This document shows positions 3,949-35,768 of a stretch of DNA of 64,000 nucleotides, piece by piece. The notes under the pieces were generated by a model. That model saw only the letters and a list, made by a program, of their open reading frames with translations. It was not told the origin of the DNA and did no database searches. This stretch comes from an uncultured Anaerolineaceae bacterium (GTDB lineage Bacteria > Chloroflexota > Limnocylindria > Limnocylindrales > CSP1-4): contig CAZOHT010000008.1 of NCBI GenBank assembly GCA_964579825.1, positions 33,613 through 97,612 of the forward strand. Direction: 5' to 3'. Position 1 is the first letter of the stretch; each line of letters opens with the position of its first letter. The position numbers and the translations under genes are program-made.

Positions 3949-4560
3949 TCAGCCGGGGATGGACTGACCTTCGTTTGGGGACACCCAACGGGTTCCCGCA
4001 ATGGGCCAGACCTCTTTGAACTGAAATCCAACCAGTCCTGCCTTGGTGACGGTGTCCACAAAACTCTGAGTCACGAGGATCGCGCCATCTGGCCACTGAC
4101 TCAACTTGAAAATTGGCTTACCGTCCAACGCGGATGGGTTTAGCGCATATCGCACAATGTCGCCGATCCCACCAGACGGATATCGGAAGATGCTCGATTC
4201 GGACTCCACCAAAGCGTCAAGCATGCAGGTGACGCTTACCAAGTGGTAGGTCAAGCCGGGCGACCGGACCGGCAGCAGTCGAGCGCACGATGAGACTAGC
4301 GGTGTGAGCACCTCTGCCGCGCGTGACGATAGCAACGGTATGCCCGTCACCCAAGTCGCTAGGTCCGTCGGCCGACCGGGCGACTTGTCGTCTGAGGGAA
4401 CCACATAGGCATCAGGAGGAGTCCAGTCTGCAGACGGCTGCAAGCGATGAAAGTCCGTGAAGAAGTCATGCTCGTCTTGAGGTTGCGCGAGCCCGAGGAT
4501 GATGGCGCCCTCCACAGCTCTGAGCCGGAAGACTGACGTGTGCGGGTCCCTCATGGCCAC
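3949..4560 (-). CDS. Putative immunity protein cognate to the AHH-type C-terminal toxin of the upstream RHS protein
   Basis: 203-aa ORF whose GTG start overlaps the toxin stop codon by 10 nt. GC is lower than in the RHS core. This position (immediately 3' of a polymorphic-toxin CT domain) is the canonical immunity slot. No family recognised. Confidence 0.45.
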   Translation of the reverse strand: MAMRDPHTSVFRLRAVEGAIILGLAQPQDEHDFFTDFHRLQPSADWTPPDAYVVPSDDKSPGRPTDLATWVTGIPLLSSRAAEVLTPLVSSCARLLPVRSPGLTYHLVSVTCMLDALVESESSIFRYPSGGIGDIVRYALNPSALDGKPIFKLSQWPDGAILVTQSFVDTVTKAGLVGFQFKEVWPIAGTRWVSPNEGQSIPG

Positions 4561-13500: not shown

Positions 13501-15479
13501 TAGTTGGCGCCGAGCTTTGCGTCGAAGTCGATGGCGACCTTGGGCACCTCGTAGGTGATGGTGAGCTTGGGTCGGTTCGACAGGGTGCCATTGGTGGAGG
13601 TGTAGAAGTCGGTCTCCCAGAAGCCAGCACCCTCAGAGCTCATCTTGAGTTCGAACCCGAGGTTGGCCTTCCAGTCGACGCCACGTCGGGTGTAGTGGGC
13701 ACGGACGGCGTTGGTCACATCGAAGTCGACCGTGCAGTCGGTCGCGCCGGTCGAGCAGGTCAGGACGTTCGGGCTGTCGTAGCCGGTCAGGACCTTGCCG
13801 TTGACATCGTTCCAGGTCGAGGTGTTGCCCCAGCCGACCTTGAGCGGGCGGGCCATGAGGTAGCGGTTGGCGCCGTAGCGGTTGATGTCCTCGCGCAGAC
13901 TGAGCGTGGCGCTCGTGACCACCGATGCCGTCGTGCCCGACGGGAAGAGCGATGGTGGCGGGAAGTACAGGTATGAGCGCAGCATCCCCCACGCGGCATC
14001 GGGGCTGCCGATGTTGTCGTCGCCCATGCGCAGGGTCGACGGGGAGGTCGGATACGTCGTCGGGTTGCCCTGGCCGGCGTACGTCTCGATGTAGTACAAC
14101 GTGGAGCCATTGACGGTGCAGCCCGATCCGCCGACCACGATGCACGCGGTCGGATCGAGCGTGACCGGGTAGATCGCGTCGGTGAGCCAGGCCTCATCGA
14201 GCGTGTAGGTCAGCGCGGTCTCGCCGCCATCGAGCGCCTCGACCGAGACGACGACCGCCGACTCCGGCGCCGGCATGTACAGGCCGTCGATGAGGACCGG
14301 CGCGCTGATGCGACCGACCTCGACCATGACGTCGCGGCCGTCCTCGGTCTGCGGCGCCTGGAGCAGGATCGTCCGTCCATCGCGATCGAGGGTCACCGTC
14401 AGCCCGGGTGCCTCGATCACGAAGGTGAACCGGTGACTGCCACCGGCGGCATCGAGCACGGCACCGAACTCGAATCCGGTGTCGACCGCCTTGACCGTGA
14501 TCCGGTCGAGACCGCTCGGGCCCTCCACGACGACCGTGCCTTCGGGCAGCGGCTGGGCATCCGGCTTGACGATCGGGCCGGTCGGTACCTCGGGTGTCGG
14601 TGTCGGCTCAGCGGTCGGCGAGGGTGTCGGTGCGGACGATGGCGACGGCGACGGGTTTGGATCGGGGCTCGGGCTGGTTGAGGGGCTGGGGCTGGCGCCG
14701 GGAATCGGGTCCGGGCTGGATCCGGCGCTCGGCGAAGGAGAAAGGCTCGGCGACGCGGATGGACTGGCCGCCGCCCCGACCTCGGCGTCGGGGCTGGTCA
14801 CCGGAGCGGCGGTGGCCGTCGGCGAAGGCGCCGGCGATGCGGGCGTGTCCGGCTGGACGACGGGCTCCGTGGGCAGTCCGAAGATCGTCTTCCCATCGGA
14901 CACGGTCGCTTGACCGTAGCCCGGGACACGGAGGTGGAGGATCCCGCTGCCGCCGGACATCTCGACGAGACCGTCGTTGGCGTCCTTAGTCGACACGGTC
15001 ACCTGGCGGTCGTTGCTCGCGACCTTGAAGCTGTCGTCGCCCGCGGGCACGAGGCTCAGGTCGATCGCCTGCCAGACCCCGCCCGGGTCCAGGAAGTTGA
15101 GTCGACCCGCCGATGCGTCCAGGGTGAACGAACCGTCCTTGTTGGCGGTCTGGGTGGTGTGCTCGGAACGCGCGGAGATGACCTCGGTGTCTTCGGCCGG
15201 CGGGACGTACTTGACATCGCGCGGACGGATCCGGGTCCCGTCCGCCAGGACCTCGACCCCTGCCGCATCGGCGCTCGCGGCACCCGACAGGTCGATCGGG
15301 GCTGCCTCGGCCTCGACGGCGGTGCCCGGTGGGATGGCCTTGCCGGGGATCGGATCCGCTTGTCGTGGTCCGATGGCCGAGGCTGCGGCCGGAGCGACTG
15401 GAACCACGAGGAGGAGCTCAGCCAGAATCAGAGCCGGTAGCACGGCGGCGGCGCGGCCGGACCAGCGGGTCCCCCTCAT
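4551..15479 (-). CDS. Giant secreted RHS/YD-repeat polymorphic toxin (WapA/teneurin-like) with a Pro/Ser-rich linker, two CBM_4_9-like domains, a LamG-like domain and an AHH-family HNH nuclease C-terminal toxin
   Basis: Signal peptide MRGTRWSGRAAAVLPALILAELLLVVPVAPAAASA. Long PS-rich low-complexity stretch. Two NPGFEDG...W...YVDDI(A/T)(L/V) modules (CBM_4_9-like). LamG-like IDEVAVYKVALDRSQMANLY. Dozens of YDxxGR repeats. RHS core terminus GNPASLIDPTGH. C-terminus AQAHHIVEV...NGVYLDRGFH...Y...L resembles AHH. Confidence 0.85.
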   Translation of the reverse strand: MRGTRWSGRAAAVLPALILAELLLVVPVAPAAASAIGPRQADPIPGKAIPPGTAVEAEAAPIDLSGAASADAAGVEVLADGTRIRPRDVKYVPPAEDTEVISARSEHTTQTANKDGSFTLDASAGRLNFLDPGGVWQAIDLSLVPAGDDSFKVASNDRQVTVSTKDANDGLVEMSGGSGILHLRVPGYGQATVSDGKTIFGLPTEPVVQPDTPASPAPSPTATAAPVTSPDAEVGAAASPSASPSLSPSPSAGSSPDPIPGASPSPSTSPSPDPNPSPSPSSAPTPSPTAEPTPTPEVPTGPIVKPDAQPLPEGTVVVEGPSGLDRITVKAVDTGFEFGAVLDAAGGSHRFTFVIEAPGLTVTLDRDGRTILLQAPQTEDGRDVMVEVGRISAPVLIDGLYMPAPESAVVVSVEALDGGETALTYTLDEAWLTDAIYPVTLDPTACIVVGGSGCTVNGSTLYYIETYAGQGNPTTYPTSPSTLRMGDDNIGSPDAAWGMLRSYLYFPPPSLFPSGTTASVVTSATLSLREDINRYGANRYLMARPLKVGWGNTSTWNDVNGKVLTGYDSPNVLTCSTGATDCTVDFDVTNAVRAHYTRRGVDWKANLGFELKMSSEGAGFWETDFYTSTNGTLSNRPKLTITYEVPKVAIDFDAKLGANYAPSSMTAGVATVLPITLTNNVSGFAFDRCTSAGDADCYQVGYRFLDQKGKTAASGQADFAADVPSAIGGANPTPIMSLAITPPSVPGTYSLRLDLIHRFGGSSGTRLYASDWAKPSAYNSRDKKVLSSDNTRWTGSSSVERDEFSVTVGSGAPGNDLKSTTTGDGGSLGIDLATRNLHYTGAGGIGFSDLVAMGVAYNYDSATAVLDCPSTGAPTKYVGMLEACGWSTNWDEHFTDTSAADQSGAYTYQDASGARSFLNTDGQGQIAGAPVLVERPRITFFDENGGGGTTLTGKLYTAASQTIPDKSGPSVVRVNADVDISLSAYTPTISLNTYRYFSFAIRTTSAVGTGVALKIHNATNSADYPDTWIVYTVGTTWSTGFAQVDYGGTVADTWRTIALRNVYDDVRTLLPGGTFDQFEVTGVVVKSRPSSSGSTYLDGMYFSPSASTVLAEPTFPTFSVNPAKASSYAEGAPGSSNSLKVTPANLAGSPTCNTTTSCWLTSSGGLYANPFVAWDWRKVGGQSVAIRFDLKDLRLDSDGAGGYATGSITYYAGSTPPSDAVNPIQVSAEVPVTWSHVTRNLLEDARQILSFYNDNPLGTSGTPPPNGPVGDDVRWTGYVLSAVDGTFALFDNLTYRSLPAASVAGSADFLATYADRSVHAFNRDGLLTSIKDRDANTVTLDYTYDTASVNSQRSYTLTGIHGPSDGGSYTRRIDISRAAGSTTLTEKLGTPGSPITGRATTFKVTSGDLVQVKPARREAVCGSTPGTPSGCTGFVYDANHRLTTVSDPRWDLTSTNGPDDYRLTVDWSSGAPMKITDKSHNGASGADLIRILAWDRGTNPLGTRALWQDSPAIAAGAAIHTDLIADGRTFIDYVPVGCTSGNCLTSGNWPTDGAGIAATKRTEHEFDGLSRVNRTTAYRTPSADPVVSRQGSRAGAKVDNYVNPLLGGQLAWSQSADQLYASRVDSANTNDDLYRTFYTYDDRGQLTHTINPVLEATPDYPRAVESATKNWNGTTNTDILAYYRLEESSGTALDANTPGGGVVGTHTAVGQATSSNALTPSSASVGATYTAASNSVTKVGTFGSVTGSFSAVAWVKPASNGTSLAILGSRYGTAAGTDHSFDLKLYVDPTTKVRAILADIGNGSAWLRPSFKAPYDWQIGRWIQVGLSVDDAADTVAIYVDGVLISSGPFTTAGTPLVVDNTRKLQIGTNGRDSVTPEWFNGSIDEVAVYKVALDRSQMANLYASARSIAVVDQATSYDSLGHPVQTTDQFLANPGFEDGIASGWRSTSATFETTTVHAGGLGSIKLAGSGTTIQERTLVPGQTFRLQGWNLVSGAGTARYTASYWKRSSNNWVAFGGMGVDYSETSWTSHAWDLPIPMDSDGRVRVKIENSNAGGSVYVDDIALFTTFAQMTYGGTGLIETTTTLSPAGGGGVVVNNPVYASSAVNPAIFATSVIVNDVGTVTDATSEDLTTTTTYDAWGRPLVTTDPDGVTSTDHYKAAGQGNGAMTDRDTVTDGAGNATTTTYDLVGNALTVQLPLGPPTTTRYDALNHPIDVTTPDTIKTTYQYDLVGQRIAVIANDVPGVPTVLDDVITSYEYDAFGRVIKTTGDDGGIEAVSESTYDLLGNVLTSTVWPGAGGTGTPRVTTSDFASANGLSRAVPTGVKLPVTSTTGHACPSGSGTCNSVSVLDLNGRTVATRDAYDNLTVQRLDLAGRAVQAIVNYVDGTGGAAEPESDLVTTTTYGLTGLVTSVTDPAARTTTTAYDAVGRPNRVTDIASGRYAKTVYRPSGRVDRVSDARTTDGALVWTKSVYDAAGRVTKTLAHYDTSGEAQISAENFEDGSATDWSSSGDFVSAGSTLTAQLGVTSPTPASGEGRLKIDTGSAANAGAVWALSGTYQSSDTYKATAWVYAPIGTTINAYLGTNTDSDTSTSIAGTGTWQALTVTWTPATNQTVAYLAYKRVGSASSVSVYLDDITVWNASAAAQNALGPDTNIPTETVYDANSRIIRSIVIGGAPGDASLVTATGYDAMGRVTSVTVNDVAGGGTTGAVNLTSTTEYDPLGRVEDAFDATGTHTTYGYDRLGRTVATTANYDDGTSSGPTGADDLRSTFAYDALGELTAYCPATAVVVDSCNPTQTVTTGNDYKSAWHYTYDAMGRMATQVAPVNVTATALDTTVWAYETGGRLASVTDQSPTLFPTIGRHVDMAYDDVGRVTSSIVYAGSGTGSPKQTTTTAYAVDGSPTQTAWNGTNDGLDSHTLDFTYTGEGWLNEIKVGGTTMTDYDYVDGLVTSRVDTNPASTGTTYATGFSYDWAQQVKAVTAGSIYATSADFTYRFDGLIASRTFPNGETLTFAYDTARRPTTITKANGNTFSQTYDRDSNVLTEARSLTGPTGDNGTNTNTLTYDALGRLTGESGLASSRSYQYDRDGNRTRKVEGGTTTVDYFYDRTDQLTKQKINGGADITFAYDRYGNMTTSRDSAGTATTYAYDTASHLTSITAGAQSSTFKFDALGRNRERTVNGVVEKYAYVGTSEVTSVITGTTTRISAVTEDGSRVATKDGSTSAFLIPDLHGNVAAMEQAAAVTIANAIRYDAYGQTMGTPYTGTGSVKLDTKYQGRLDISPSTTPLYDMSARFYSPGIGAFTQLDSYAGSVQNPATMNRFLYALGNPASLIDPTGHYAEGQICNLGPEDCGAINWVPRSDGGGGGASGLRQPSKSQTSRTKDNDSSPTTVTPPLIKMVAGVWVGPSGAPFTQGDLDTVYTSCLVLRDEAACDAWRAGMDRIRQADQQFCEVNPEACQLQAEQRTAALVFGLELIVLAAATLDGIPGDEAAVGAGLVAPAGARLAAISQELANLSTPAGPAAGGFFGRSAALSREMLNRALLAELGPGAAKPVNAQAHHIVEVTRPAAAASRAVLERFGIDGDSALNGVYLDRGFHLTDTTRAVYTLEVSNLLQRANSRDEVIATLQFVRASLLAAQAAGTEWP

Positions 15480-16069
15480 CCGTCTTCCCCAAGCCGTCGA
15501 TCAGGCCGACAGCCTCCTCCTGGGTCACTCGACGATCAGTGGGGCGATCGCCCGATGTCGACCCATGACGCTCGCCCGCGCGCGGCGAGTGCTGTCGCGG
15601 ACTTTCGCCCGACCAACGGAGGCGTGTCAATAGGACTTATCCACAACTTTGGTCGACCATGACGGACATGGCAATTCGTGGATCGTCGCGGCGTTAGCGA
15701 CCGGCCCTATTTGATTGCCAAGCAGAGAGCCACCATGCCTTTCTCACGCGTTCGTGCGATTGGGCCTCCTCGACGTGCGAACCGCGTGGTACCACATGGT
15801 CGAGGCAAGGAATGAGCCGACCGTCCTGCGATGGACCTGAGTCGCCAGCTTGCGGGGCTGGCCGACGAACCACGTCCGAAGGGATCCCAAGGCGGCGTCC
15901 GCTCGGCCAGCGGCTCGCCGGCCTGACCCCCGAGCGCACTCACGGCGCCTCGACCAGCGTCAACCGTCTGGGCACCGAGCGCGTTGCTTACGCAATCTTG
16001 CTCCGGGGCTACGCGTCCAGCCTATGCTGGAGCTGTCCAGAGAGCGTAAACAGGGATGGGAGGCAGTCG

Positions 16070-16777
16070 TTGGACGCGGACGAGATCAAGGAGAAGCTCG
16101 CGGGCGCCGGCTACTCGCCAAACGGACCCACCAGACTCGCTAATGATCTCGGCGATCAGGTTCGGATCAAGGGCGTCGTCGTGAATGCGTACGACAACGG
16201 CACCGTTCAGGTGCAGGGTGTTCCCGAGCTGGCCGTGCAGGTCCGTGAGCTTCTCGGCGTATTGGATGGCGGTGGCAGACAACGGACCGCTCGCGGCCAA
16301 CCTGCTGCAGCGGCTGCCACCAACCGCGACGTCTTCGTCGTCTATGGGCACGACATTGGAGCGCGGACTCAGCTTGAAGCGATGCTGCGCCGTTGGAACC
16401 TTGAACCTCTAATCCTTGAGCAACTCCCGTCGGAGGGGACCACGCTTATCGAGAAGCTGGAGAAGTACGCCAGGGATGACGTTCGCTTTGGGGTTGTCCT
16501 AGCCACTCCCGACGACGTTGGAAATGCGGTAGGCAAGGACGACGAGCGCAAGTCCCGCGCGCGACAGAACGTCGTTCTTGAACTCGGTCTGCTACTGGCG
16601 AAGCTCGGTCGAGCACGGGTCGCGATCCTACTCAAGGATCAGGCGATGATGGAGCGACCGTCGGACCTCCAAGGGCTGATCTACTACGCCTTCACCGATG
16701 ATGTCGACGAGGTGAAGCTGCAGTTGGCCAAAGAGATGCACAAGCAAGGCATCGCCATCGACCTTGGCCGCGTGTAG
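16070..16777 (+). CDS. TIR-like domain protein (PF10137-type predicted nucleotide-binding TIR-like, as in CBASS/Pycsar-type effectors) with a ~60-aa N-terminal domain of unknown function. This is copy A of an inverted pair.
   Basis: GGGAGG-6 nt-TTG start at 16070 (the track ORF from 15812 carries a non-homologous extension). RDVFVVYGHD...LEPLILEQ...TLIEKLE...RFGVVLATPDDVG...RARQNVVLELGLLLAKLGRARVAILLKD...ERPSDLQGL matches my memory of the PF10137 consensus. 93.6% aa identity to 34701..35408. Confidence 0.55.
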   Translation: MDADEIKEKLAGAGYSPNGPTRLANDLGDQVRIKGVVVNAYDNGTVQVQGVPELAVQVRELLGVLDGGGRQRTARGQPAAAAATNRDVFVVYGHDIGARTQLEAMLRRWNLEPLILEQLPSEGTTLIEKLEKYARDDVRFGVVLATPDDVGNAVGKDDERKSRARQNVVLELGLLLAKLGRARVAILLKDQAMMERPSDLQGLIYYAFTDDVDEVKLQLAKEMHKQGIAIDLGRV

Positions 16778-17002: not shown

Positions 17003-18229
17003 TCAATCGGTCCCAGCCAACCCGACGAGCCACTCCGCACGAGCCAGAAGTTCGTCGAAGGTTACGATTTCCGGCTCGACCACACTTCGGCGAAACAACT
17101 CGAAGGAACGGATCTTCTCCACGTTCGGGCCTCCCCCCTCTCCGAGTAACTCTCGGAGCATGCCGATCAGCAGGTACGAGCGAGGTCGCATCAGGAACGT
17201 AACCTCGGTCGGGATCTCCGAGCCGTCCTCGGCGCGCTCGCGGAGCGCCTCGCCGATGTCTTCGATGGCGCGTCGCACGGTGCCTTGGGACTGTGCTATG
17301 CCCGCCGCGATGTCGCCCGATGGTGCGTACACCCCCGGTCGATAGTGGGGGCCAAGGAGGTTCGTCCGGTGCGTCTTGAACTCGGCGAAGGTCATCCATC
17401 GAACGACCCCAGACGTCCGCATCACCGCGTCGGCCCGCTTGCCCTCGTGCGCCATCGACGACCCGCCGACCACCTGCTCGAGGCGCTCCCTGTCCCACGA
17501 CGAGTAGAGCTGAGCCCCTAGCCCTGCGCCGAGTATCCAGGGGTTCAATTCAAAGAACATCTGCCACACCTTTTCCGGACTCTTGCCGGGAGCAGCCACG
17601 ACCGCGGCGTCGAATGCGTCGTCGTCCGTCAAGAGTGTGCGGAACCACTCAACTTCGGTCCGCCGCCGTCGCATGGCGATGACGTCATGTGCGGCCGCAT
17701 CATCACTTATGAGCGCCCGGAAGAATTCGGGGTCTCGTTCGTAGATCTGGCCGATTGCCTCGGGCGTCGAGAACACGGCGCGCACGGTCGCATCGTCAAC
17801 GCGAGACGTGGCTCCGCCTTCCACCGGTATGTACTCGATGTTTCGCAGGAGCTCAACGACACGTGCTGCTTCGTCACCCTGGAATGTGGCTACGTTCTTG
17901 ATCCTTGGCCCCGTTGCGAGGTTGTCGACTCGCTGGATCATGATCTTCGTAACGTTGCCAGGTGACCCGCTCACCAGGAGCTTGAGCTGGACCCGGCCGG
18001 TGGGTGACTCGTGGACCAGCCACTGCGTCCCGTCTTCCTCAGTGGCCTCGATCACCGTGTCGCTGATGGGGTCGATGACCTTGTGAACGAAACGGGCCGG
18101 GACGCCGCCTGCCGATGGGTCTGGGAACGTCTTTGACAGGTACGTCTGGTCGGGCCTGCGGCCTTCGGCGTAGTCCACTTCGCCCGCTTGGCGATCATCC
18201 TTGAATGCGAACGGCTGCGGCATCGGCAC
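17003..18229 (-). CDS. Shedu-like (SduA, DUF4263) PD-(D/E)xK nuclease-domain protein
   Basis: 408 aa. C-terminal region KVWQMFFELNPWILG...GKRADAVMRT...RWMTFAEFKTHR resembles the DUF4263 motif (NPW.FG) with D...E.K restriction-endonuclease-like residues. The N-terminal domain is unrelated to anything I recognise, as in Shedu. Assigned from motif memory only. Confidence 0.4.
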   Translation of the reverse strand: MPMPQPFAFKDDRQAGEVDYAEGRRPDQTYLSKTFPDPSAGGVPARFVHKVIDPISDTVIEATEEDGTQWLVHESPTGRVQLKLLVSGSPGNVTKIMIQRVDNLATGPRIKNVATFQGDEAARVVELLRNIEYIPVEGGATSRVDDATVRAVFSTPEAIGQIYERDPEFFRALISDDAAAHDVIAMRRRRTEVEWFRTLLTDDDAFDAAVVAAPGKSPEKVWQMFFELNPWILGAGLGAQLYSSWDRERLEQVVGGSSMAHEGKRADAVMRTSGVVRWMTFAEFKTHRTNLLGPHYRPGVYAPSGDIAAGIAQSQGTVRRAIEDIGEALRERAEDGSEIPTEVTFLMRPRSYLLIGMLRELLGEGGGPNVEKIRSFELFRRSVVEPEIVTFDELLARAEWLVGLAGTD

Positions 18230-20267: not shown

Positions 20268-20586
20268 GGCCGGTGGGATGCCGACGGTCATGCTTGCCGC
20301 GATCGCGTTTCGCGGGATGTATCTGGCTCGCCGCCTCCGAGCGGGTGGGACGCACGTGATCGAAGTCTATCCGCGAGCGTCGTTTCGCAGCCTCGGGTGG
20401 GATGGGCGACCGGCGAGCATCGACGAAGGTTGGAGACTTATCGCTTCGCTGGTGACGGGGGTCGAGGTGGGCACCCGCGACGACCTGGACGCTGTGTGTG
20501 CGGCTCTCGTCGCGGCCCAGATGGCTCAGGGCCGTGCCCACGAGGAGCGCGGGTCCGACGGATCGATGTGGGTGGCCGTGCCGTAG
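20268..20586 (+). pseudogene. Possible gene fragment (C-terminal part resembles DUF429-like proteins). The reading frame appears disrupted upstream.
   Basis: MPTVMLAAIAFRGMYLARRLRAGGTHVIEVYPRASF...DDLDAVCAALVAAQMAQG looks protein-like. A MGIDAPL segment lies in another frame just upstream (ends 20189). No convincing full-length ORF. Confidence 0.2.
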
Positions 20587-20843: not shown

Positions 20844-23800
20844 GTGCATCGTGGTCGCGGCCGCTCGATGAATCGCGTCGCCTGCCTGATCGCCGTGGCG
20901 GCGATCGCCTCTGAGGCGATGCTCGCGAACGTGCCGATCGTCAGGGCGGCATCGCCGGAGCCGTCGGGTCAGGTCGAGACCGCTCCGTCGCCGTCGACCG
21001 AACCGACCTCGTCACCGGCGGCGACCCAGCCGGTTTCAACGCCATCGCTCAACGCGCCGGGTTCGCCGATCCCGTCCCTCAGCGCCGCTCCATCCATCGT
21101 GCCGCAGGCGACGCCTGTGCCAGTGCCGATGACTCCGGACCACGCCGACCCAAAGCCCGGAGCCACGGAGATCGTCGCCGAGCGGACCGACCGGTCGCAG
21201 ACGTACGACAACCACGACGGCACGCGGACGACCGAGTTCTACGTCGAACCGGTCTTCTACAAGCCCGAGGGGTCTGACACCTATCAGCCGATCGAACTCG
21301 GCTTCGATGCGACGAACCAGGACGGGCTTGAGGCGATCTCAAGCAAGGCCCCGATCACGATCGGCTTGGCCGAGTCCACCTCGACCGACAACTTCCTTCG
21401 ACTCAGCGATGGCGCACAGCAGATCGGATTTGCGATGCCGGCCGACCTTGCCAGAACCGCCGAACCGGTCAAACCAGCGATCGACGGTCGGGTTGCAGAC
21501 TTCAGGGACTTCTACCCAGGGATCGACCTCCGCGTCATCGCCAACGCCGATGGGGCGAAGTCGTTCTTCATCTGGCACTCCAACCCGGCCGACTCGACCC
21601 TTCGCTATGTCGTCGACGCCCCAGGCTTGACGCTTGTCGCCGAGCGGGATGGCTCCATCTCGTTGATGGGTGCGAACGAGAAGGTCGTCGCGTCGATCCC
21701 CCGACCCTATGCCGTGGACTCGACCGCGGATGAGCGCGCCGGCGGCGGTCGGTTCACCGACAAAGTCTCGCTCAACCTGGCTGAGGACGGCAGGACGATC
21801 ACGGTCGCGGTCGATCCCGATTGGCTGAAGACCGCCGTGTATCCGGTCTACGTGGATCCGTCCACGGGCTGGGTCGTCAACAGCGGGACCAACACCTACG
21901 GCGATGCCTTCACGGCGTCGAACTATCCGGGCACCAACTTTGGCAACTACCAGCGTCCCGACTCGCCCTACTACCACGAGCTGTGGAATGGACTCGATCC
22001 ATCCGGAACCTCGGGTACCAGCCTGACCTACTTGAAATGGAATCTGAGCGGGATCATGGACACGACGGTCGAGTCGGCGACCCTCGCCCTTGATCCCTAC
22101 CACCAGTACTACGACGCCCCGACGGTGCTGAACACCTACGTCCGCCGCGTCGAAGAGCTCTGGTATCAGAACTCCGTGACCTGGACCACGGCACCCGACT
22201 TCACGTACGACGACTCGAGCACCGCCGGCTGCGTCGAAGGCGCCTGGTGCTACTGGGATGTCGCCGCCATCGTCCAGAAGTGGACGAACTGGAGTTTCAC
22301 GAACTACGGATTCCAGATCGACAACGAGGGGCACGGGTCGACGTATTGGAAGCGCTTCGTGTCGTCGGAGGAGACGACGACCGGGATGGTCCCGCAACTC
22401 AAGGTCATCTACCACGTCCCGACCGTCACGGACCTGACCCCGCGGTTCACGGGAACGGTGGCCTGGTCCACGCCGAATGCACAGACCAAGTTCCAGGTCG
22501 AGGTCGCCACCGACGGGACCTTCACGACCCCGGTGGCCCTATCGGGTCAAGTCGCAAGCTCCGCGACCAGTTGGCGGATCCAGCCCAATCAGGTCACGCC
22601 GATGGTTGACGATGCCGTCTACTCGTATCGTGTCAGGATCTTTGATGGTTCCTGGACCACCTATGCCCAGGGCACCTTCACCTACGACGCGTACCTGCGT
22701 GGCGAGGAGACCTACTACGACAGCGTGCCGTTCGACCTCGGTGGCGGCCTCGGTCTCGAGGTCGGCGCCCAGAACGGCGAGGCTCGACTCCAGCGCGACC
22801 TGTTCAGCATCCCGTCCTATGGACCCGCGGGCGAACTGCGCCTGACCCACAGCTCGCTCGATCCGTCGGGTGCCGGCGCATTCGGGGTCGGCTGGTCGTC
22901 GAACCTCACCCAGTACCTGACCTTTGAGAACGGCCTCGTCGTGTGGCACCGCGCCGATGGGGGCCGGGTCGCCTTCTCGAACGCGACCGGCAGTTGGCTT
23001 GTCCAGGGTGGCCACTTCGAAACGCTCGTCCGTGGCACGAACGATGTCATCACGTTGAAGGATCAGACGAAGCTGACCTTCCAGAACTCGAGCGCTGGAC
23101 ACCTGCTCTCGATCACCAACCGCTTCGGCAAGGCACTCACCATCACTGGCTGGGGTACGTCAACCGTCACCGCGACCGACGCAGCCGGCCGCGCCACGAC
23201 CCTCGGCTTCACGGGCTCGCTCATCACCAGCGCGACCGACTCGGCCGGTCGTGCCTGGGGCTTCACCTACACCGGCACAAACCTCACGACCCTGACCGAT
23301 CCCGCAAGCAAGACCACGACCTTCGCCTATAGCGGCAGCAAGGTGACCACGATCACTCGTGCGCGGACCAAGGCGGCCGGCGGGACCGACTCGATCGTCT
23401 GGGCCATCGGTTACACCAGCGGCCTCGTGACCAGCGTCACCGACCCGATCGGTGCCGCGACCGGAGGCACGCCGGCGCACACCTTCACGACGACCGCATC
23501 TTCAACCGTCGCTGGTCCGCTGCGCACCTATTCCCCGGTCGTACGCAACACGACCACGTACACCCTCGATGGGTACGGGCGCTCCACCTCGATCCTCGAT
23601 CCGGGCGGCTACACGACCAAGCAGACCTTCTATCCCGATGGAACACTCAAGCGCATCGACCGTCCGGTCGCGCTTTCGCCGTCGGCCACCTGGGCTCGCA
23701 CCGACTACCTCTATACGGCCGGCAACCTTGTCCAGGAGACCGTGGGCCTCGATGCGACCGCGACCGGAGCACCGACCAGCACGATCGTCAACGTCATGTC

Positions 23801-26800
23801 GTACAACGCGACCAATGACCTGCTGACCCGCTCCGAGGACGACGGAACGTCATTGGCCCGCGTCATCACGCTCAACAAGTACGACGGATCAGGTCATCTG
23901 ACCGACGTCATCGAGAACTGCACCACCACCGGGACGACGCCGCCGGCGACCGCCTCGAGTTGCACCGGCGCGGGCACCCACGACGGCTCGACGAACCTCA
24001 CCACCACCTACAAGTACACCGCCAACGACCAGGTCGATGTCGAATGGAACCCGCGTGGCTATGCGACCAAGCACGTCTACGACGCGAACGGGAACGAGAC
24101 CTCGACCATCACGAACTGCACGACGTCTGGGACGACCGTCCCGACCCGCAACACCAGCTGCACCGCGGCTGGCACGCACGATGCCACCACCAACGTCACG
24201 ACGAGCGCGACCTTCGCGCTCGCCACGCGCGACGGCAAGGCCGGACTCCCTGGGACCACGACCGACGCCCTCGGTGCGATCACCACGAACACCTACGACG
24301 TCATCGGCCGCCAGACCATCGAGGTCCTGCCGGGCGACGCCACCATCCCGGTGCTGACTCGGACCACGGTGTTCGACGAGTACGACGCGCCGCTGACGGT
24401 CACCGAATCCTGGCCGGGGCTGTCGCCCTCGCGTGTGACCACCTCGGTCTATGACCTGCGCGGGCAGCTGCTGACCGAGACCAACCCGGCTGGTGAGGTC
24501 ACCTCCTCCGCCTACAACGCGGCCGGCGATGTCACGAGCTCCACGGCCAACGGCGTCACGACGACGAACACGGTGGACGGGCTGGGGAATGTCACCTCCG
24601 AGGTCACGGGCGGCGTCACGACGGCGCACGCCTATGACGGGCGGAGTGTGAAGTTGACCAGCACGGGCGCTGGCGCCGACGTCACGCTGACGGTCGACGG
24701 GATCACCCGGCCAACCAACCGGAAGGTCGGCTCCGGCGTCGCCATCGAGGATTCTCAGGACCTGACCGTCGCCGGCCACATCAAGGTCAGCCGAAGGGTC
24801 GGGGCTGGGTGGGTCCTGCAGACGGACGCGACCTTGGACCGCCTCGGGCGACAGGTCTCCCTCGCGACGGGCCCGACGAGTCCGCTGATCCAGACGTCCA
24901 CGTTCGACGCCAACGGCAACGAAGTCGCTGCCACAGCGCCAGCGGCGAGTGGCAGCGGCCCGCTGACAACGACGACGTACGACGCGCTCGATCGAACGAC
25001 GTCGGTCGTCGCCAACGACGTCGTAAGCGTCACCGACGCCACGAGCCAGGACTTGACCACCATCAGCTACTACGACGCCGCGGGCCAGGTCGTCGCAACG
25101 AAGGATCCGCTCAATGTCGTGACCCGGACCTTCTACAACGTCCGCGGCTTGCCGACCAAGATCGTGCTCAACTGCACCGACACGGGCACGACCGCGCCAT
25201 CGAACCCGGCGACCTGCGCGGGCACGGGCACGGCATCGTCCTCCTACAACGTCGTCACGACGATGACCTACGACGGATCCGGATCCCAAGTTACCTCGAC
25301 GCAGGTCATGAGCACAGGTTCGATCGTCACGGCATCCACGTACGATGCAGCGGGCCGGCTGACCAAGGTCATCGTGGATCAGGGCGGACTCGCGCTCACG
25401 ACCGAGTACGCCTTCGACTCGAATGGGCAGCCCTCGGCCGTCAAGGACCCGGCGGGGACCGTCAGTCGGACCTTCTACGACGCGGCCGGGCGAGTCAGCT
25501 CGACCGTGGCGAACTGCACGACCTCCGGCACGGCCCTACCGTCGCCGTGGGCCACCTGCACCGCTGGCGGCACGCACGACGGAACGTGGAATCTGACCAC
25601 GTCATTCACGTACGACAGTCGCGGCAACAAGGCCACCGAGACGGCGCCGAACGGCCGTGTCACGTCGTACACGTATGACCTCGCCGGGCGCGTCATCACG
25701 CGGACCGACGACTCGGGTGTCAGCAACCTCGTGACCACCTACTTCTTCGACGAACTCGGAAACCAGGTGGCCATCCAGGCACCGACCACGAATGGAACCA
25801 CGTTCGCTGTCACACGCTTCCTCTACGACGGCTACGGTCGCGTGACCCGGGAGATCCGCAACTGCACGAACTCGGGAGTCACGGTTCCGATCATCCCGGC
25901 CGATGCCCCAGCGTCCTGCTCGGGTAACGGCACCGAGGACTGGCAGACCAATCTCAAGACCGACTACGCGTACGACGATCGCGGCAACCGGATCCGCCTC
26001 ACGGTGCCCGACCCGTCAGAGACCACCTCCGCTCCAGCAAGCGGGACCGCCGCGTACGTCACAACCCAATATGCCTTCGACGGTGCCGACCGGCTTTGTC
26101 GCGTCGTGGAGCATGCGACTGGCTCGACCAACCTACAGACCCTTGCGAACCCCTGTTCAACGACGACCCAGACGACGGGTGCCGGCACGAATGCTTCGAC
26201 GCGTTACGTCTATGACGCCGCGGGCAGGATGACCAGCATGGTCGACGCCGCCGCCTACACGACCTCGTACGCCTACGACGGACTCGGTCGGACGACCTCC
26301 AGAACCGACGCCCTTGGAGCGACGCTGTATTGGAAGTACGACGAACTCGGCCGTCATACCCGGCAGGAGAACCGCTCTGACCCGCCGATGACCGCGAGTG
26401 TCACCTGGACCTACGACAAGGCCGGGCGTCAGCTGACCCGGACGGCCGACAGCGTGACCACGACCTACACCTACGACGTGAGCGGCAACAAGCTGACCGC
26501 GACCACGGGCAGCCAGGTCATCACCGCCACCTACGACCGACTGAACCGGCCGCTGACCGTCGACGACGAGGACGCCGGCTCGACAGCCGACACGACCTAC
26601 ACCTACGCCTTCACCAACCCCTCATGGACGGACCCGACCGGCACCTATGGCGTGACGCTCGACAAGTTCGACCGAGCTACCGCGATCAATGATCCGGTCA
26701 ACGCTGCCGACTTCACCGTGACCTATCGGGCTGACGGCCAGCGAGCGACGTTCGGCCAGCCCAACGGCAACACGACCGACTTCACCTACGACACCGCCGG

Positions 26801-28244
26801 CCACCTGACCGGATCCGACGACGACACCTCGGGCGGCACCGACCGGGCCGTCTATGCCTGGACGTACAACCGGGCCGGCCAGGTCCTGAGCGAGGCCAGC
26901 ACGATCACTGGCGATACCAGCAACGGCACGATCACTTATGGCTACGACAAGCTTGGGCGGCTGACCGGCTCGACCGTGGCTGGCACGACCACCGCCTACG
27001 CCTGGGACGCCGTCCCGAACCGCACGAGTGTGAAGATCGGGGCCGGCACCGCCGCCCTGACCGCGTACGATGCTGCCAACCGGCCGACCAGCGGCACGAC
27101 CCCGACCGCTACGTACACGAGCGACGCCGATGGCCGCCTGACCGCACAGCCCGGCCAGCAGTTCGTGTGGGATCACCTCGGTCGCCTGACCCAGGTCAAG
27201 AACAGCGGCGGGACCGTCCTCGCCACCTACAGCTACGACCCACTCGATCGACTCCGCCTGGTCGACTACGGCGGCAGCAACCGCATCCGCTTCCGCTATG
27301 TCGGACTGACCACGTCAGCGGCCCAATGGATCGACGATGTGGCTGGCACGGTCACCCGCAACATCGGCACCGGCTGGACCGGCGAGCGCCTGCTCGACTG
27401 GACCGGTGCCGGCTCCAACATCCGTATCTACGGTGAGAACGCCCACCACGACGTCACCTGGCTGGCCACCAACACGGGCACCGTCAGCCAGGCCCTCCGC
27501 TACGACCCATGGGGCACGCCGCGGACCACGGTCCCGACCGGCTACACGCCATTCCGGTTCCAGGGCAGCTGGTTCGACGACACGACCGCCCTGTCCTGGG
27601 TCGTTACCCGCTGGTATGCGCCCAACCTCGGTCGGTTCATCAGCGAGGACTCACTCCTGGGCGATGCCATCGACCCACCATCCCGGCACCTGTACGCTTA
27701 TGGGCAGGGCGAGCCGGTGGGGCGCTGGGATCCGGACGGGAGGTGCCCAACCGCAGCCGCGGTCGTGATCCCGGTTATTGGTCCGTACTTCGCGATTAGC
27801 TCCTGCGCAATTTGGGTAGGTGCCTTGCTCGTGGTTCCGGTCGCAGCGGTAGCAATCTCGGCCCTACCCTTCAGCGCCTCCGATGCCGTGCCTCGTCGCA
27901 TGGCGATAGGACTTTCGGTGACCCTTCCCCGCGCTGACGCAACGCAGATCAAGCCCGAGAAGTCGAAGAGGTGCTTTGCAATTGGTGAGTTGCAGGCAAG
28001 AGTCACCGCGTTTGCCCTGGCGCACAACTGCAGTCGGATGCCAGACTTGCCCGGCATGTCGACCCAGCAGCGGATGGCGTTGAATGCCATCTGGATTGTG
28101 GAGATGATGGGCCTAAGAAAGACCCTCTACGACTGCGGTCGATACTACGACGTCATGTCCAAGTACTACCGATTGGAGAAGGGCTTGACCTTTTCGTACT
28201 CGCCGCAATACCGGGTCAGCTGCCCGGTACCTAAGGGCCGCTGA
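20844..28244 (+). CDS. Secreted RHS/YD-repeat polymorphic toxin (2466 aa) with a novel ~170-aa hydrophobic C-terminal toxin domain
   Basis: GGAGGG-8 nt-GTG start. Signal peptide MNRVACLIAVAAIASEAMLANVPIVRAASP. N-terminal module is paralogous to RHS1 (AVYPVYVDP versus AIYPVTLDP). Many YD repeats. RHS core end RWYAPNLGRFISEDS...RWDPDGR. The C-terminal domain has two hydrophobic helices (AAAVVIPVIGPYFAISSCAIWVGALLVVPVAAVAISALPF) and no family I recognise. Confidence 0.85.
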   Translation: MHRGRGRSMNRVACLIAVAAIASEAMLANVPIVRAASPEPSGQVETAPSPSTEPTSSPAATQPVSTPSLNAPGSPIPSLSAAPSIVPQATPVPVPMTPDHADPKPGATEIVAERTDRSQTYDNHDGTRTTEFYVEPVFYKPEGSDTYQPIELGFDATNQDGLEAISSKAPITIGLAESTSTDNFLRLSDGAQQIGFAMPADLARTAEPVKPAIDGRVADFRDFYPGIDLRVIANADGAKSFFIWHSNPADSTLRYVVDAPGLTLVAERDGSISLMGANEKVVASIPRPYAVDSTADERAGGGRFTDKVSLNLAEDGRTITVAVDPDWLKTAVYPVYVDPSTGWVVNSGTNTYGDAFTASNYPGTNFGNYQRPDSPYYHELWNGLDPSGTSGTSLTYLKWNLSGIMDTTVESATLALDPYHQYYDAPTVLNTYVRRVEELWYQNSVTWTTAPDFTYDDSSTAGCVEGAWCYWDVAAIVQKWTNWSFTNYGFQIDNEGHGSTYWKRFVSSEETTTGMVPQLKVIYHVPTVTDLTPRFTGTVAWSTPNAQTKFQVEVATDGTFTTPVALSGQVASSATSWRIQPNQVTPMVDDAVYSYRVRIFDGSWTTYAQGTFTYDAYLRGEETYYDSVPFDLGGGLGLEVGAQNGEARLQRDLFSIPSYGPAGELRLTHSSLDPSGAGAFGVGWSSNLTQYLTFENGLVVWHRADGGRVAFSNATGSWLVQGGHFETLVRGTNDVITLKDQTKLTFQNSSAGHLLSITNRFGKALTITGWGTSTVTATDAAGRATTLGFTGSLITSATDSAGRAWGFTYTGTNLTTLTDPASKTTTFAYSGSKVTTITRARTKAAGGTDSIVWAIGYTSGLVTSVTDPIGAATGGTPAHTFTTTASSTVAGPLRTYSPVVRNTTTYTLDGYGRSTSILDPGGYTTKQTFYPDGTLKRIDRPVALSPSATWARTDYLYTAGNLVQETVGLDATATGAPTSTIVNVMSYNATNDLLTRSEDDGTSLARVITLNKYDGSGHLTDVIENCTTTGTTPPATASSCTGAGTHDGSTNLTTTYKYTANDQVDVEWNPRGYATKHVYDANGNETSTITNCTTSGTTVPTRNTSCTAAGTHDATTNVTTSATFALATRDGKAGLPGTTTDALGAITTNTYDVIGRQTIEVLPGDATIPVLTRTTVFDEYDAPLTVTESWPGLSPSRVTTSVYDLRGQLLTETNPAGEVTSSAYNAAGDVTSSTANGVTTTNTVDGLGNVTSEVTGGVTTAHAYDGRSVKLTSTGAGADVTLTVDGITRPTNRKVGSGVAIEDSQDLTVAGHIKVSRRVGAGWVLQTDATLDRLGRQVSLATGPTSPLIQTSTFDANGNEVAATAPAASGSGPLTTTTYDALDRTTSVVANDVVSVTDATSQDLTTISYYDAAGQVVATKDPLNVVTRTFYNVRGLPTKIVLNCTDTGTTAPSNPATCAGTGTASSSYNVVTTMTYDGSGSQVTSTQVMSTGSIVTASTYDAAGRLTKVIVDQGGLALTTEYAFDSNGQPSAVKDPAGTVSRTFYDAAGRVSSTVANCTTSGTALPSPWATCTAGGTHDGTWNLTTSFTYDSRGNKATETAPNGRVTSYTYDLAGRVITRTDDSGVSNLVTTYFFDELGNQVAIQAPTTNGTTFAVTRFLYDGYGRVTREIRNCTNSGVTVPIIPADAPASCSGNGTEDWQTNLKTDYAYDDRGNRIRLTVPDPSETTSAPASGTAAYVTTQYAFDGADRLCRVVEHATGSTNLQTLANPCSTTTQTTGAGTNASTRYVYDAAGRMTSMVDAAAYTTSYAYDGLGRTTSRTDALGATLYWKYDELGRHTRQENRSDPPMTASVTWTYDKAGRQLTRTADSVTTTYTYDVSGNKLTATTGSQVITATYDRLNRPLTVDDEDAGSTADTTYTYAFTNPSWTDPTGTYGVTLDKFDRATAINDPVNAADFTVTYRADGQRATFGQPNGNTTDFTYDTAGHLTGSDDDTSGGTDRAVYAWTYNRAGQVLSEASTITGDTSNGTITYGYDKLGRLTGSTVAGTTTAYAWDAVPNRTSVKIGAGTAALTAYDAANRPTSGTTPTATYTSDADGRLTAQPGQQFVWDHLGRLTQVKNSGGTVLATYSYDPLDRLRLVDYGGSNRIRFRYVGLTTSAAQWIDDVAGTVTRNIGTGWTGERLLDWTGAGSNIRIYGENAHHDVTWLATNTGTVSQALRYDPWGTPRTTVPTGYTPFRFQGSWFDDTTALSWVVTRWYAPNLGRFISEDSLLGDAIDPPSRHLYAYGQGEPVGRWDPDGRCPTAAAVVIPVIGPYFAISSCAIWVGALLVVPVAAVAISALPFSASDAVPRRMAIGLSVTLPRADATQIKPEKSKRCFAIGELQARVTAFALAHNCSRMPDLPGMSTQQRMALNAIWIVEMMGLRKTLYDCGRYYDVMSKYYRLEKGLTFSYSPQYRVSCPVPKGR

Positions 28245-28706
28245 ATGCCATCCCTAGGACAATTGCCGGACTCAGTCGACGAGCAGGTCGAGGTCGCGCT
28301 CAAGGGGGAGTACGCGTGGTGGTTCCGTGCAGTCCTTGACGAGTTCGCGTTCTTGGGAAGCGACTACGACTATCGGATCAACCTAGTGGAACCCCACTTC
28401 AGGGGCTGCTCCGTCTTCTTTGGTCGACCCGAGGCGGACCTATTGTTCGCCTTCGAGCCAGAGTCGGAATTGGTCATTGGGGAGTTCTGGGTACGTCAAG
28501 CTCCCGGGCAAAACAATGTGCTCAAGTTGGACAACCTGCTTGCCGTGCGTGATCCAGGCTGGCGGAGCGTTCGTTTGCGCGACGACTTTCCAAGCGTGCA
28601 GGCCTGGGTAGCTGCCACGCTGACCGCATGGGCGGTCGGCCTAAAGGCCCATGCGCCAGACTTGCTGGCCGGTCAGTTCGTGGGGCATCTACCGTGGACA
28701 GATTAG
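28245..28706 (+). CDS. Putative immunity protein for the RHS2 C-terminal toxin
   Basis: ATG at 28245 immediately follows the toxin stop codon (TGA 28242-28244). 153 aa, cytoplasmic-looking. Canonical immunity position. Confidence 0.5.
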   Translation: MPSLGQLPDSVDEQVEVALKGEYAWWFRAVLDEFAFLGSDYDYRINLVEPHFRGCSVFFGRPEADLLFAFEPESELVIGEFWVRQAPGQNNVLKLDNLLAVRDPGWRSVRLRDDFPSVQAWVAATLTAWAVGLKAHAPDLLAGQFVGHLPWTD

Positions 28707-30539: not shown

Positions 30540-31030
30540 TCGCCGGCCTCGACGTGACGGACGGCGAAGCGGCTGACCCGCTCGACCGCCTCAGCCGACC
30601 CCGCATCCCCGATCCTGGCCGCCAACAGGCGCGGGATCATGGCCTCGATCAGGCCTGGCTCGATGACCACGACCGCATCCGCGTTCGGGGTGGCCCCTGC
30701 GTCAGCGTCCGGCCGTATCCCGAGGAGGGCGGCCCGGCGGCCCCAGCGCTCCCCGAACCGTCGGTCGAGCAGCGCCAGCGCGAGGCGCGGGTCGTTGAAG
30801 GCCGCCTGGGTCACGGTCCCCGCCAGGCGGAGCTCGAGCTCGGTCTCGACCCGGCGGACATCGTCGAGGAATTCGACATGGACGGGTGTGGTGCCGGCCA
30901 GGATCCGGTACAACGTGGCGGGCGACCAGCCGGCGTAGCGGGCCGCGGTCTCGGGGAAGACGCCGGTCCCGAGCGCGGAGAGGAAGCGATCTCGTCGGTC
31001 GGCGGTGAACTTCGATGGCCGGCCCATCAC
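30536..31030 (-). CDS. Phage terminase small subunit-like HTH protein
   Basis: N-terminal MMGRPSKFTADRRDRFLSALGTGVFPETAARYAGWSPATLYR is typical of TerS-type HTH proteins. Sits immediately 5' of TerL, with a 4-nt overlap. Confidence 0.5.
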   Translation of the reverse strand: MMGRPSKFTADRRDRFLSALGTGVFPETAARYAGWSPATLYRILAGTTPVHVEFLDDVRRVETELELRLAGTVTQAAFNDPRLALALLDRRFGERWGRRAALLGIRPDADAGATPNADAVVVIEPGLIEAMIPRLLAARIGDAGSAEAVERVSRFAVRHVEAGE

Positions 31031-34700: not shown

Positions 34701-35408
34701 CTAGACGCGGCCAAGGTCGATGGCGATGCCCTGCTTGTGCATCTCCTTGGCCAATTGCAGCTTCACCTCATCAACGTCGTCCGTGAAGGCGTAGTAGATC
34801 AGGCCCTGGAGATCGGAGGGCCGTTCCATCTTCGCCTGGTCCTTGAGGAGGATCGCGACTCGCGCACGACCGAGTTTCGCCAATAGCAGCCCAAGTTCCA
34901 GGACCACGTTCTGTCGCGCTCGCGACTTCCGCTCGTCGTCCCTTCCGACGGCATTCCCAACGTCGTCAGGGGTGGCCAGGACGACCCCGAATCGAACGTC
35001 ATCCCTGGCGTACTTCTCCAACTTCTCGATGAGCGTCGTCCCCTCCGACGGCAGCTGCTCGAGGATCAGGGGCTCAAGGTTCCAGCGGCGCAGCATCGCC
35101 TCTAGTTGCGTGCGCGCTCCAATGTCGTGTCCGTACACGACGAAGACGTCCCGGTTGGTGGAGTCTGCGCCAGCAGGTTGCCCGCGCGCCGGTCGTGGTT
35201 TTCCACCGCCGTCTACTACGCCGAGAAGCTCGCGGACTCGCGCGGCGAGGTCGGGACTGCCTTGCACCTGAACTGTGCCGTTGTCATACGCATTGACGAC
35301 TGCGCCCTTGATCCTTACTTGATCGCCGAGATCGTTGGCGAGTCGGGTGGGTCCGTTTGGCACGTATCCGGCGCCCGCGAGCTTTTCCTTTATCTCGTCA
35401 GCGTCCAA
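34701..35408 (-). CDS. TIR-like domain protein (PF10137-type), copy B, inverted relative to copy A
   Basis: AGGAGG-6 nt-TTG start. 235 aa collinear with 16070..16777, with 15 substitutions concentrated in residues ~16-85. The TIR-like core is nearly identical. The 3' 45 nt differ at 2 synonymous positions. Confidence 0.55.
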   Translation of the reverse strand: MDADEIKEKLAGAGYVPNGPTRLANDLGDQVRIKGAVVNAYDNGTVQVQGSPDLAARVRELLGVVDGGGKPRPARGQPAGADSTNRDVFVVYGHDIGARTQLEAMLRRWNLEPLILEQLPSEGTTLIEKLEKYARDDVRFGVVLATPDDVGNAVGRDDERKSRARQNVVLELGLLLAKLGRARVAILLKDQAKMERPSDLQGLIYYAFTDDVDEVKLQLAKEMHKQGIAIDLGRV

Positions 35409-35768
35409 CCAATTCCTCCTAACCCCTCCAGTACGATTGATGACTCCAGCAAACACCCGGTGCTCCTGAGCGGATTTGGCTGGGGAGAACCGAGATCGAA
35501 CCTAGGAGCGACTGAAATGAGGAGGTCGCATAAGTGGCGGGGCCGCCCTGCGTCGGTTTTCGTTCGTCTGTAGTGTGACCAGTTGGCCCCGCCAAACGCC
35601 CTCACCGGGATACAACGCCACGAATTCCAGTGGATCCGCGACAGGTCCGGTCGAAGGGACGTACCTGGCGTACCTAGTTTCACCTCGCCGGTGTGACCTT
35701 CCTGCCCACTACTCCTTCGGCCGTTCGGAGTTGAGGCTCTCGCGGACGAGCGGGATCGAAGCGAAATG

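Follow-up and report, generated by a model that had tools for sequence, protein, structure and literature searches.

How the cargo of RHS and other polymorphic toxins passes the cytoplasmic membrane of the target cell is poorly understood (bioRxiv 10.1101/2025.10.28.685041), and it is least understood for toxins from bacteria without injection machines. The question is posed anew by RHS2, a gene in a 64,000-nucleotide stretch of DNA from an uncultured Anaerolineaceae bacterium (GTDB lineage Chloroflexota; Limnocylindria; Limnocylindrales; CSP1-4), namely positions 33,613 to 97,612 of contig CAZOHT010000008.1 in assembly GCA_964579825.1; we call this whole stretch the window and number all positions along it. 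RHS2 (20844..28244, + strand; GTG start with GGAGGG upstream) encodes 2,466 amino acids (aa) and is followed at once by a gene for a 153-aa protein (28245..28706, +), and both open reading frames (ORFs), as called in a first-pass annotation of the sequence, proved real. Our preferred reading, to which we give slightly better than even chances, is that RHS2 is a Sec-exported Chloroflexota (Limnocylindria-like) RHS toxin whose cargo is a membrane-tethered or self-translocating enzyme, neutralized through binding by the acidic, soluble immunity protein encoded next to it. By its sequence features RHS2 is an RHS/YD-repeat polymorphic toxin, as it combines a shell, a core ending in DPxG, a variable cargo and an adjacent candidate immunity gene.

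The cargo and its family

The initial assignment of RHS2 as an RHS protein with a cargo past RWDPDGR holds. The core ends at aa 2299, where GRFISEDS is followed by YAYGQGEPVGRWDPDG and the boundary reads GRWDPDG/R, which leaves a variable cargo of 167 residues (aa 2300–2466, window 27741–28241). GRFISEDS and WDPDG are each present, providing in sequence the two aspartates expected of the autoprotease, and we predict from the behaviour of its family that the core is an autoproteolytic plug. Close relatives of RHS2 with near-identical core ends bear unrelated tails.

Searched alone, the cargo gave no match at E ≤ 0.1 to 1 in Pfam, NCBIfam, PHROGs or PADLOC, and neither the single sequence nor the family profile found anything significant among PDB sequences; profile scans of all 13 family members returned only two stray matches, each from a single member (E 0.058 and 0.15). 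Together with Foldseek searches of PDB and BFVD that likewise stayed without significance, these results agree with the original remark that the cargo matches no described toxin family. A word-indexed homology search also found no match and is uninformative, since RHS2 sits in that collection behind a 159-aa fragment that represents its 90% cluster, and the listed matches reach ~1,260 aa at most; negatives from it for domains of very long proteins should not be trusted.

An exhaustive phmmer search against 1.84 billion representatives (E ≤ 1e-3) returned 13 matches, 12 of which are genuine (E 3e-21 to 6e-5) and all metagenomic relatives; the remaining one, a repetitive protein of 1,030 aa (P0131), aligned only to the hydrophobic stretch and was discarded as spurious. 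A DPxG core end precedes the toxin in all 11 relatives with upstream sequence, the twelfth (P0127) being a 68-aa fragment without any, and the relatives ride on at least two different RHS core types. Their clusters are tiny and their source names read only 'RHS repeat-associated protein' or 'hypothetical protein'. Searching the cargo alone against GTDB species genomes found no related locus, a three-sequence cargo alignment found no match among JGI metagenome contigs, and tblastn of the cargo and the 153-aa protein found none among plasmids. Judged by these homologues, the cargo belongs to an RHS toxin family that is rare and undescribed and whose members keep to one layout.

In RHS2 the cargo opens with 46 uncharged residues, over which the mean Kyte–Doolittle hydropathy of 19 residues (KD19) peaks at 2.46. 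The first-pass annotation had seen 'two long hydrophobic helices' here, which could not be verified: AlphaFold leaves the first ~70 cargo residues at a predicted local distance difference test (pLDDT) score below 50, and comparison across the family points to a single transmembrane-like helix, so that the region is better read as a cysteine-bracketed loop followed by one helix of transmembrane length (aa 2322–2343). The loop lies at 27744..27806 (+; C2301 to C2321), and a cysteine pair spaced 9–20 apart within the first 25 residues past DPxG occurs in 10 of the 12 members. The putative helix (27807..27872, +; AIWVGALLVVPVAAVAISALPF; hydropathy 2.46), which AlphaFold does not confirm, corresponds to a hydrophobic segment with KD19 ≥ 1.88 in 11 of the 12; in four it ends in the motif LPF..[GS]D.V, which in RHS2 reads LPFSASDAV (aa 2341–2349) and reaches into the linker. 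The linker itself (27882..27971, +; aa 2347–2376) carries a net charge of +4, and a net-basic stretch of 30 residues follows the hydrophobic segment in 10 of 11 members. The closest RHS relatives with other cargoes (P0013, P0015, P0017, P0023 and P0029) have no such segment, and for that reason we assign it to the toxin module and not to the shell.

Other, unrelated RHS cargoes also start, past DPxG, with cysteines and a hydrophobic or glycine-rich stretch, the motif there being CPxC; examples are DPAGTCPWCIVIVVGVVLF in L007 (7-785) and DPSGACPLCVSAGIGAAIG in P0071, a Streptomyces protein. Such cysteine-plus-hydrophobic 'pre-toxin' leaders may form a wider, undescribed module in RHS toxins of Actinobacteria and Chloroflexota.

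The soluble tail with cysteines that had been noticed after the hydrophobic stretch is borne out in the 167-aa cargo as a conserved alpha/beta domain (27972..28241, +; aa 2377–2466), delimited by the family alignment and by confident modelling. Its residues M2399, W2417, D2430, G2432, Y2441 and Y2442 are invariant, and I2380, G2381, R2386, V2387, A2391, C2396, N2414, S2439 and E2445 nearly so, while C2377 and E2382 (the latter ending an I-G-E motif) are each found in 11 of the 12 members covering the position. All invariant residues of the cargo fall in its last ~90 aa, as do the near-invariant ones apart from R2363 in the linker. AlphaFold, run on the family alignment, models aa ~2372–2466 with pLDDT > 90 as a beta-alpha-beta-alpha-beta-alpha-beta unit, and the domain has a net charge of +6. 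Going by this model, the domain has a small Rossmann-like fold that could be assigned to no family; its conserved acidic and aromatic cluster (E2382, R2386, N2414, W2417, D2430, Y2441/Y2442 and E2445) most likely lies at the C-terminal edge of the parallel sheet. Foldseek found nothing significant for the domain either in PDB (best E 0.19; PTS IIA-Man, FakB, RecR/Toprim and others) or in BFVD (best E 0.17; weak hits of SLOG/DUF2493 type), and we rejected a kinship with Toprim, SLOG or PTS-IIA on these grounds.

The start codon of the 153-aa gene abuts the toxin stop in a TGA-ATG junction without spacer, with AAGGG a few bases upstream of the ATG. Its product is soluble and acidic (maximum KD19 1.18, no transmembrane segment, net charge −10); the indexed search found no relative beyond the protein itself, and Pfam and PDB gave no match. 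Homologues nevertheless lie directly downstream of three of the toxin relatives, P0134 (L004), P0130 (L008) and P0133 (L009), with 46–56 bits and 26–29% identity over 120–150 aa, and a partial ORF of 39 aa after P0125 (L007) has, by eye, the ..EFAFL.. motif in common with it, although its BLAST match is not significant. The first proposal of an immunity gene gains from these neighbours, and because homologues adjoin homologous toxins in three other contexts, we regard the 153-aa protein as belonging to a cognate immunity family.

The homologue at L009 (552–1139, 195 aa) ends in a transmembrane helix and RRRRR, like a tail anchor, and the window protein lacks both; this ending would fit a protein that acts at the membrane's inner face. 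A tblastn alignment with the L009 homologue passed the stop of the window gene at 28706, but the frame downstream is only hydrophobic-looking and shows no similarity that convinces, and we did not judge this a truncation. Neither a terminator nor a promoter pattern was found after the gene. GC content at third codon positions (GC3) is 0.86 for the shell but lower for the cargo (0.67–0.79) and the immunity gene (0.71), and P0134 is an orphan fragment adjoining a transposase; both features look typical of exchangeable toxin–immunity cassettes. A separate JGI contig (3300047100, L007) carries the end of an RHS cargo, an 86-aa gene, an orphan core end with P0125 and the start of an immunity homologue, and is by its gene content an apparent array of orphan toxin–immunity cassettes.

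How the cargo may act

In the mechanism that we infer, from autoproteolysis and disulfides through membrane insertion and topology to enzymatic activity and immunity, the YD-repeat shell would enclose the 167-aa cargo and the RHS core domain would cut it off after DPDG. The cargo helix would insert into the cytoplasmic membrane of the target cell, and the positive linker and the domain would reach the cytoplasmic side in keeping with the positive-inside rule, perhaps with the membrane potential as driving force. The soluble domain would be an enzyme and the toxic part, acting while tethered to the membrane or after release, and in sibling cells the 153-aa acidic protein would bind it directly and so neutralize it. 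Where an immunity protein is globular and cytoplasmic, its toxin is generally a cytoplasmic one too (PMC3482391), and since the candidate here is soluble and acidic, this generalization points to a toxin that acts in the cytoplasm.

Several observations weigh against this mechanism. AlphaFold shows no helix in the hydrophobic part, where pLDDT is below 50, and conserved cysteine pairs inside the cargo suit an oxidizing, extracytoplasmic site better than the cytoplasm. The assignment as an enzyme is drawn solely from the conservation pattern, the fold matches being non-significant (E 0.17–0.19), and the family alignment is shallow, at 13 sequences. Nor is the pairing with the immunity gene universal, as the genes after P0124 and P0135 are homologous to each other and form a second family, and the gene after P0136 belongs to a third.

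The hydrophobic stretch could itself be the weapon. A pore-forming tail had been suggested at the outset, and a depolarizing cargo like the C-terminal toxin of Tse5 (Tse5-CT), with the soluble tail assisting in targeting or oligomerization, would suit the long uncharged opening, its peak hydropathy and the recurrence of a hydrophobic segment in nearly all members; precedent exists in the Rhs protein Tse5, which encapsulates an integral-membrane, pore-forming CT of 16 kDa (PMC10684867). Yet the hydrophobic part differs between members in sequence and length, is weak in P0135 (KD19 1.32) and probably holds only one helix of transmembrane length, whereas the invariant residues sit in the compact alpha/beta domain. 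Immunity to membrane-acting toxins is usually membrane-embedded (PMC3482391), unlike the soluble and acidic candidate, and the cargo has no sequence match to Tse5 within the searched PDB set. Given where conservation falls and what the immunity protein looks like, we take an enzyme, tethered to the membrane or self-translocating, as the better explanation; a pore-former we consider decidedly unlikely.

The segment might, on the other hand, serve packaging or retention only, holding unfolded cargo on the inner wall or plugging the shell, with the soluble enzyme gaining entry by hijacking a protein of the target, a route that has been proposed for other Rhs and CDI toxins. This is rather unlikely in our view, though it draws on Tse5, where the first 27 cargo residues are the sole ordered ones and lie along the shell's inner wall (PMC10684867), and on Serratia Rhs2CT, which is reported to need the host factor EF-Tu for its entry (bioRxiv 10.1101/2025.10.28.685041). 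It has to contend with the sister shells named above, whose core ends are near-identical and which do without the segment, so that a shell of this type seems to need none, and with the fact that the segment travels with the toxin domain across different RHS lineages.

The enzyme reading that we prefer has a bolder form, in which cysteine loop, helix and basic linker together make up a portable membrane-entry device, with which the Sec-secreted toxin of a bacterium that has no type VI secretion system (T6SS) would bring a small basic enzyme of new fold and new activity across the cytoplasmic membrane of a competitor or onto its inner face. We put this forward tentatively and think it improbable; if true, it would be a portable answer to the problem of how RHS cargoes cross membranes. 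Helix, basic linker and small enzyme-like domain amount to a compact, testable model of self-delivery, and the locus would contribute, from the little-studied Chloroflexota, both a toxin fold and an immunity family that are new. Should the domain turn out to be an ordinary nuclease or NADase, it would be one more entry in a very large catalogue.

The shell and its cysteine-pair inserts

RHS2 appears to be Sec-exported and not T6SS-dependent. Its first 35 residues (20844..20948, +; ...PIVRA/AS) form a predicted Sec signal peptide, judged by eye from the translation, and Pfam and NCBIfam detected no PAAR, VgrG or other T6SS-linked domain and no cell-wall-binding repeats. A DNRLRE domain (21903..22406, +; aa 354–521; NF033679, E 1.3e-24) precedes DUF6531 (22761..22976, +; aa 640–711; PF20148, E 4.6e-09), the usual start of an RHS shell. 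The YD-repeat shell follows (22977..27500, +; aa ~712–2219), recognized by Pfam and NCBIfam profiles (PF05593, RHS_repeat, in 12 stretches, E 2.5e-44; TIGR01643, YD_repeat_2x, in 8 stretches) and by an AlphaFold model of part of it, and leads into the RHS repeat-associated core (Rhs_assc_core; 27501..27740, +; aa 2220–2299; TIGR03696, E 2.5e-15); the shell region spans ~1,590 aa. The modelled part, aa 985–1800, built on a 28-sequence alignment with a mean pLDDT of 81, is a strip of beta-hairpins that matches Rhs, teneurin and Tc shells locally in Foldseek (E 1e-27 to 1e-17). As a fragment it is not closed like known shells, with template-modelling scores (TM-scores) of 0.14–0.24 and a predicted TM-score of 0.45.

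Five cysteine-pair inserts interrupt the repeats of this shell, at 23916..23999 (aa 1025–1052, NCTTTGTTPPATASSCTGAGTHDGSTNL), 24114..24197 (aa 1091–1118), 25170..25253 (aa 1443–1470), 25512..25595 (aa 1557–1584) and 25860..25955 (aa 1673–1704), all on the + strand; the third is without the H/D-x-x-x-N end, and the inter-cysteine loop of the fifth has 17 residues. The pattern NC[TS]..G.{6,20}C matches RHS2 five times, against a maximum of one match in shuffled RHS2, reached in 10 of 5,000 shuffles, and a hidden Markov model (HMM) of the insert finds the same number. The inserts had been described as six, near-identical and periodic. Only five are canonical, their pairwise identity is 43–64% and they follow one another at uneven distances of 66, 352, 114 and 116 aa; the sixth cysteine pair belongs to a different loop (26097..26156, +; C1752 to C1771, RLCRV...PC), which in the form RLCRV...PC...GT...N.STRY.YD is conserved in at least 10 homologues. 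The five pairs and C1752/C1771 account for all 12 shell cysteines, one further pair (C463/C469) lying outside the shell in the DNRLRE domain.

To place the inserts among RHS proteins, we searched for homologues of aa 1000–1720, which yielded 2,456 RHS proteins, and worked with the best 120; the insert HMM, built from strict instances, was scanned against 124 proteins and found 85 instances in 32 of them. Both cysteines are present in 80 of the 85, with a modal loop of 13 residues and the consensus N-C-T-x-[ST]-G-T-T-[PV]-P-x4-[TAS]-C-[TA]-G-x-G-T-x-[DN]-x-x-[TW]-N-[VL]-x-T. RHS1, a second RHS gene in the window, has no match to the insert HMM, as had been noted. Within the best 120 of the 2,456 homologues, 29 of the 31 closest relatives carry the motif but only 2 of the 89 distant ones do, and all close relatives that carry a source name are Chloroflexota. 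The early impression that the inserts are unusual for RHS shells is therefore right for RHS proteins at a distance and wrong for the immediate kin. The nearest species genome, a Candidatus Limnocylindrales metagenome-assembled genome, shares 67% identity over the region and has four inserts at matching places. We also checked whether they form a standard RHS repeat subtype, which they do not, being restricted mainly to one lineage; as far as these alignments tell, the inserts are a lineage-specific subtype of repeat turn that is not peculiar to RHS2.

The cysteine insert at aa 492 of P0006 corresponds, by eye, to a short turn without cysteines in RHS2 (ANDVVSVTDATSQDLTT), which suggests that the cysteine loop elaborates on a long turn between repeats of the ordinary kind. 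AlphaFold models the inserts as non-beta loops (block pLDDT 68–91) with a one-turn helix, a three-residue run of 'H' in DSSP, before the second cysteine, insert 2 being coil throughout. The numbers of strands between neighbouring inserts in this model of aa 985–1800 are even (4, 8, 8 and 4), and the inserts would therefore all sit along one edge of the beta-strip, across from the YDxxG turns. Both the inserts and the RLCRV..PC loop probably enlarge the hairpin turn between repeats and are stapled by predicted disulfides. They were most likely inherited within the RHS lineage of RHS2, where they would stabilize or decorate the shell of an extracellular protein.

Beyond structural staples, the inserts might be recognition signals, as sequons for N-glycosylation (N-C-T, N-[LV]-T) or a sortase-like pattern, or else receptor-binding knobs. 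N-C-T is an N-x-T sequon, kept in 78 of the 85 instances, the loops are rich in Thr, Ser, Gly and Pro, and surface protrusions with a function are known from the Rhs shell of Tse5, three of which are implicated in membrane binding (PMC10684867). Across the whole of RHS2, though, N-x-S/T sequons are not enriched (27 against 22 ± 3.9 expected), an LPxTG-like motif is absent and no glycosyltransferase was seen adjoining the gene, while the best-conserved insert positions (N, C, G, T, P, C, G, G, T, N) are framework residues and not a variable binding surface. The glycosylation or sortase-like pattern proposed initially thus finds no footing, and we rate a recognition role of any of these kinds as very unlikely. 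As structural features, the loops indicate that RHS shells can bear lineage-specific, probably disulfide-locked decorations, which is relevant to the engineering of RHS or Tc cocoons as protein-delivery capsules.

Genomic surroundings and known systems

RHS2 lies in a variable island within the window. RHS1 (4551..15479, −; 3,642 aa) has an AHH nuclease tail of HNH/EndoVII type (aa 3546–3618) and is followed by a 203-aa immunity gene of the Imm11 family (3949..4560), the two being, by their domains, a conventional toxin–immunity pair. By annotation, the surroundings of the RHS genes include defence-island content, namely a TIR effector of CAP12/Pycsar type (15812..16777, +), a Shedu protein with SduA_C (17003..18229, −) and, further along, another protein of CAP12-PCTIR_TIR type (34701..35456, −). 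Just upstream of RHS2, a 98-aa ORF (20290–20586, +) matches only the C-terminal half of DUF429 (profile positions 111–205 of 214) and probably represents a gene fragment. Directly 3′ of the immunity gene, positions 28977–34015 form a mobile-element-like block with a 520-aa Terminase_6C protein, an HTH protein, an N6/N4 DNA methylase and a tyrosine integrase, and this block may explain the lower GC3 of the cargo and immunity cassette.

Known RHS polymorphic toxins (the T6SS Rhs effectors RhsA, 7q97, S. bongori Rhs, 8qjb, and Tse15; the Tc toxin TcB-TcC; WapA) resemble RHS2 in the YD-repeat shell, DUF6531 and variable cargo, and share with it a core ending in DPxG and an immunity gene immediately downstream; RHS2 differs from them in its lineage-specific cysteine-pair loops, the length of its shell region and a cargo and immunity protein of no described family. 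WapA of Bacillus subtilis is Sec-exported rather than T6SS-dependent. Sec-dependent RHS toxins of the WapA type, from monoderm bacteria, combine an N-terminal Sec signal with cell-wall-binding repeats; RHS2 has an N-terminus that by eye is signal-like, no cell-wall-binding domain in Pfam or NCBIfam, and DNRLRE instead.

Tse5 (PA2684) of Pseudomonas aeruginosa is likewise an Rhs shell around a cargo with a hydrophobic, membrane-inserting sequence, a property that in RHS2 is predicted, and its shell also bears lineage-specific decorations, in the form of protrusions of 27–42 residues (PMC10684867). These protrusions are helical regions, whereas the RHS2 inserts are short cysteine loops; Tse5 is delivered by a T6SS and RHS2 apparently is not; and unlike Tse5-CT, the RHS2 cargo has a conserved part that is modelled as a folded alpha/beta domain, together with a soluble immunity protein. 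Tse5 is in the PDB set searched (8cp6) and gave neither a sequence or profile match nor a Foldseek match to the RHS2 cargo.

Some T6SS effectors are delivered with the assistance of transmembrane domains (PMC12881460). In prePAAR/Eag-dependent effectors such as Tse6, transmembrane helices are thought to aid crossing of the target inner membrane. Such effectors join hydrophobic helices to an enzymatic domain, as we propose for the RHS2 cargo, but their transmembrane domains are N-terminal, outside an RHS cargo, and need Eag chaperones, whereas in RHS2 the putative helix lies within the C-terminal cargo, directly past the predicted cleavage site.

Minimal Rossmann-like folds that handle nucleotides or nucleic acids (Toprim/RecR, SLOG/DUF2493 and PTS IIA-Man) share with the modelled domain the order of strands and helices, a conserved Glu just past strand 1 and a conserved Asp that ends strand 3. 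All Foldseek matches nonetheless have E ≥ 0.17, probability ≤ 0.6 and TM-score ≤ 0.40, those to Toprim and SLOG having E 0.17–0.6 and probability ≤ 0.35; the domain shows D2430-x-G and not the DxD that, after an upstream E, marks Toprim, and DxD, GGxGT or any other family motif is absent from it. Set beside these systems, RHS2 is an unusual variant of a known weapon and not a new kind of system, because its shell cysteine-pair loops are typical of its bacterial lineage, and its interest lies mainly in the built-in membrane segment and the new fold.

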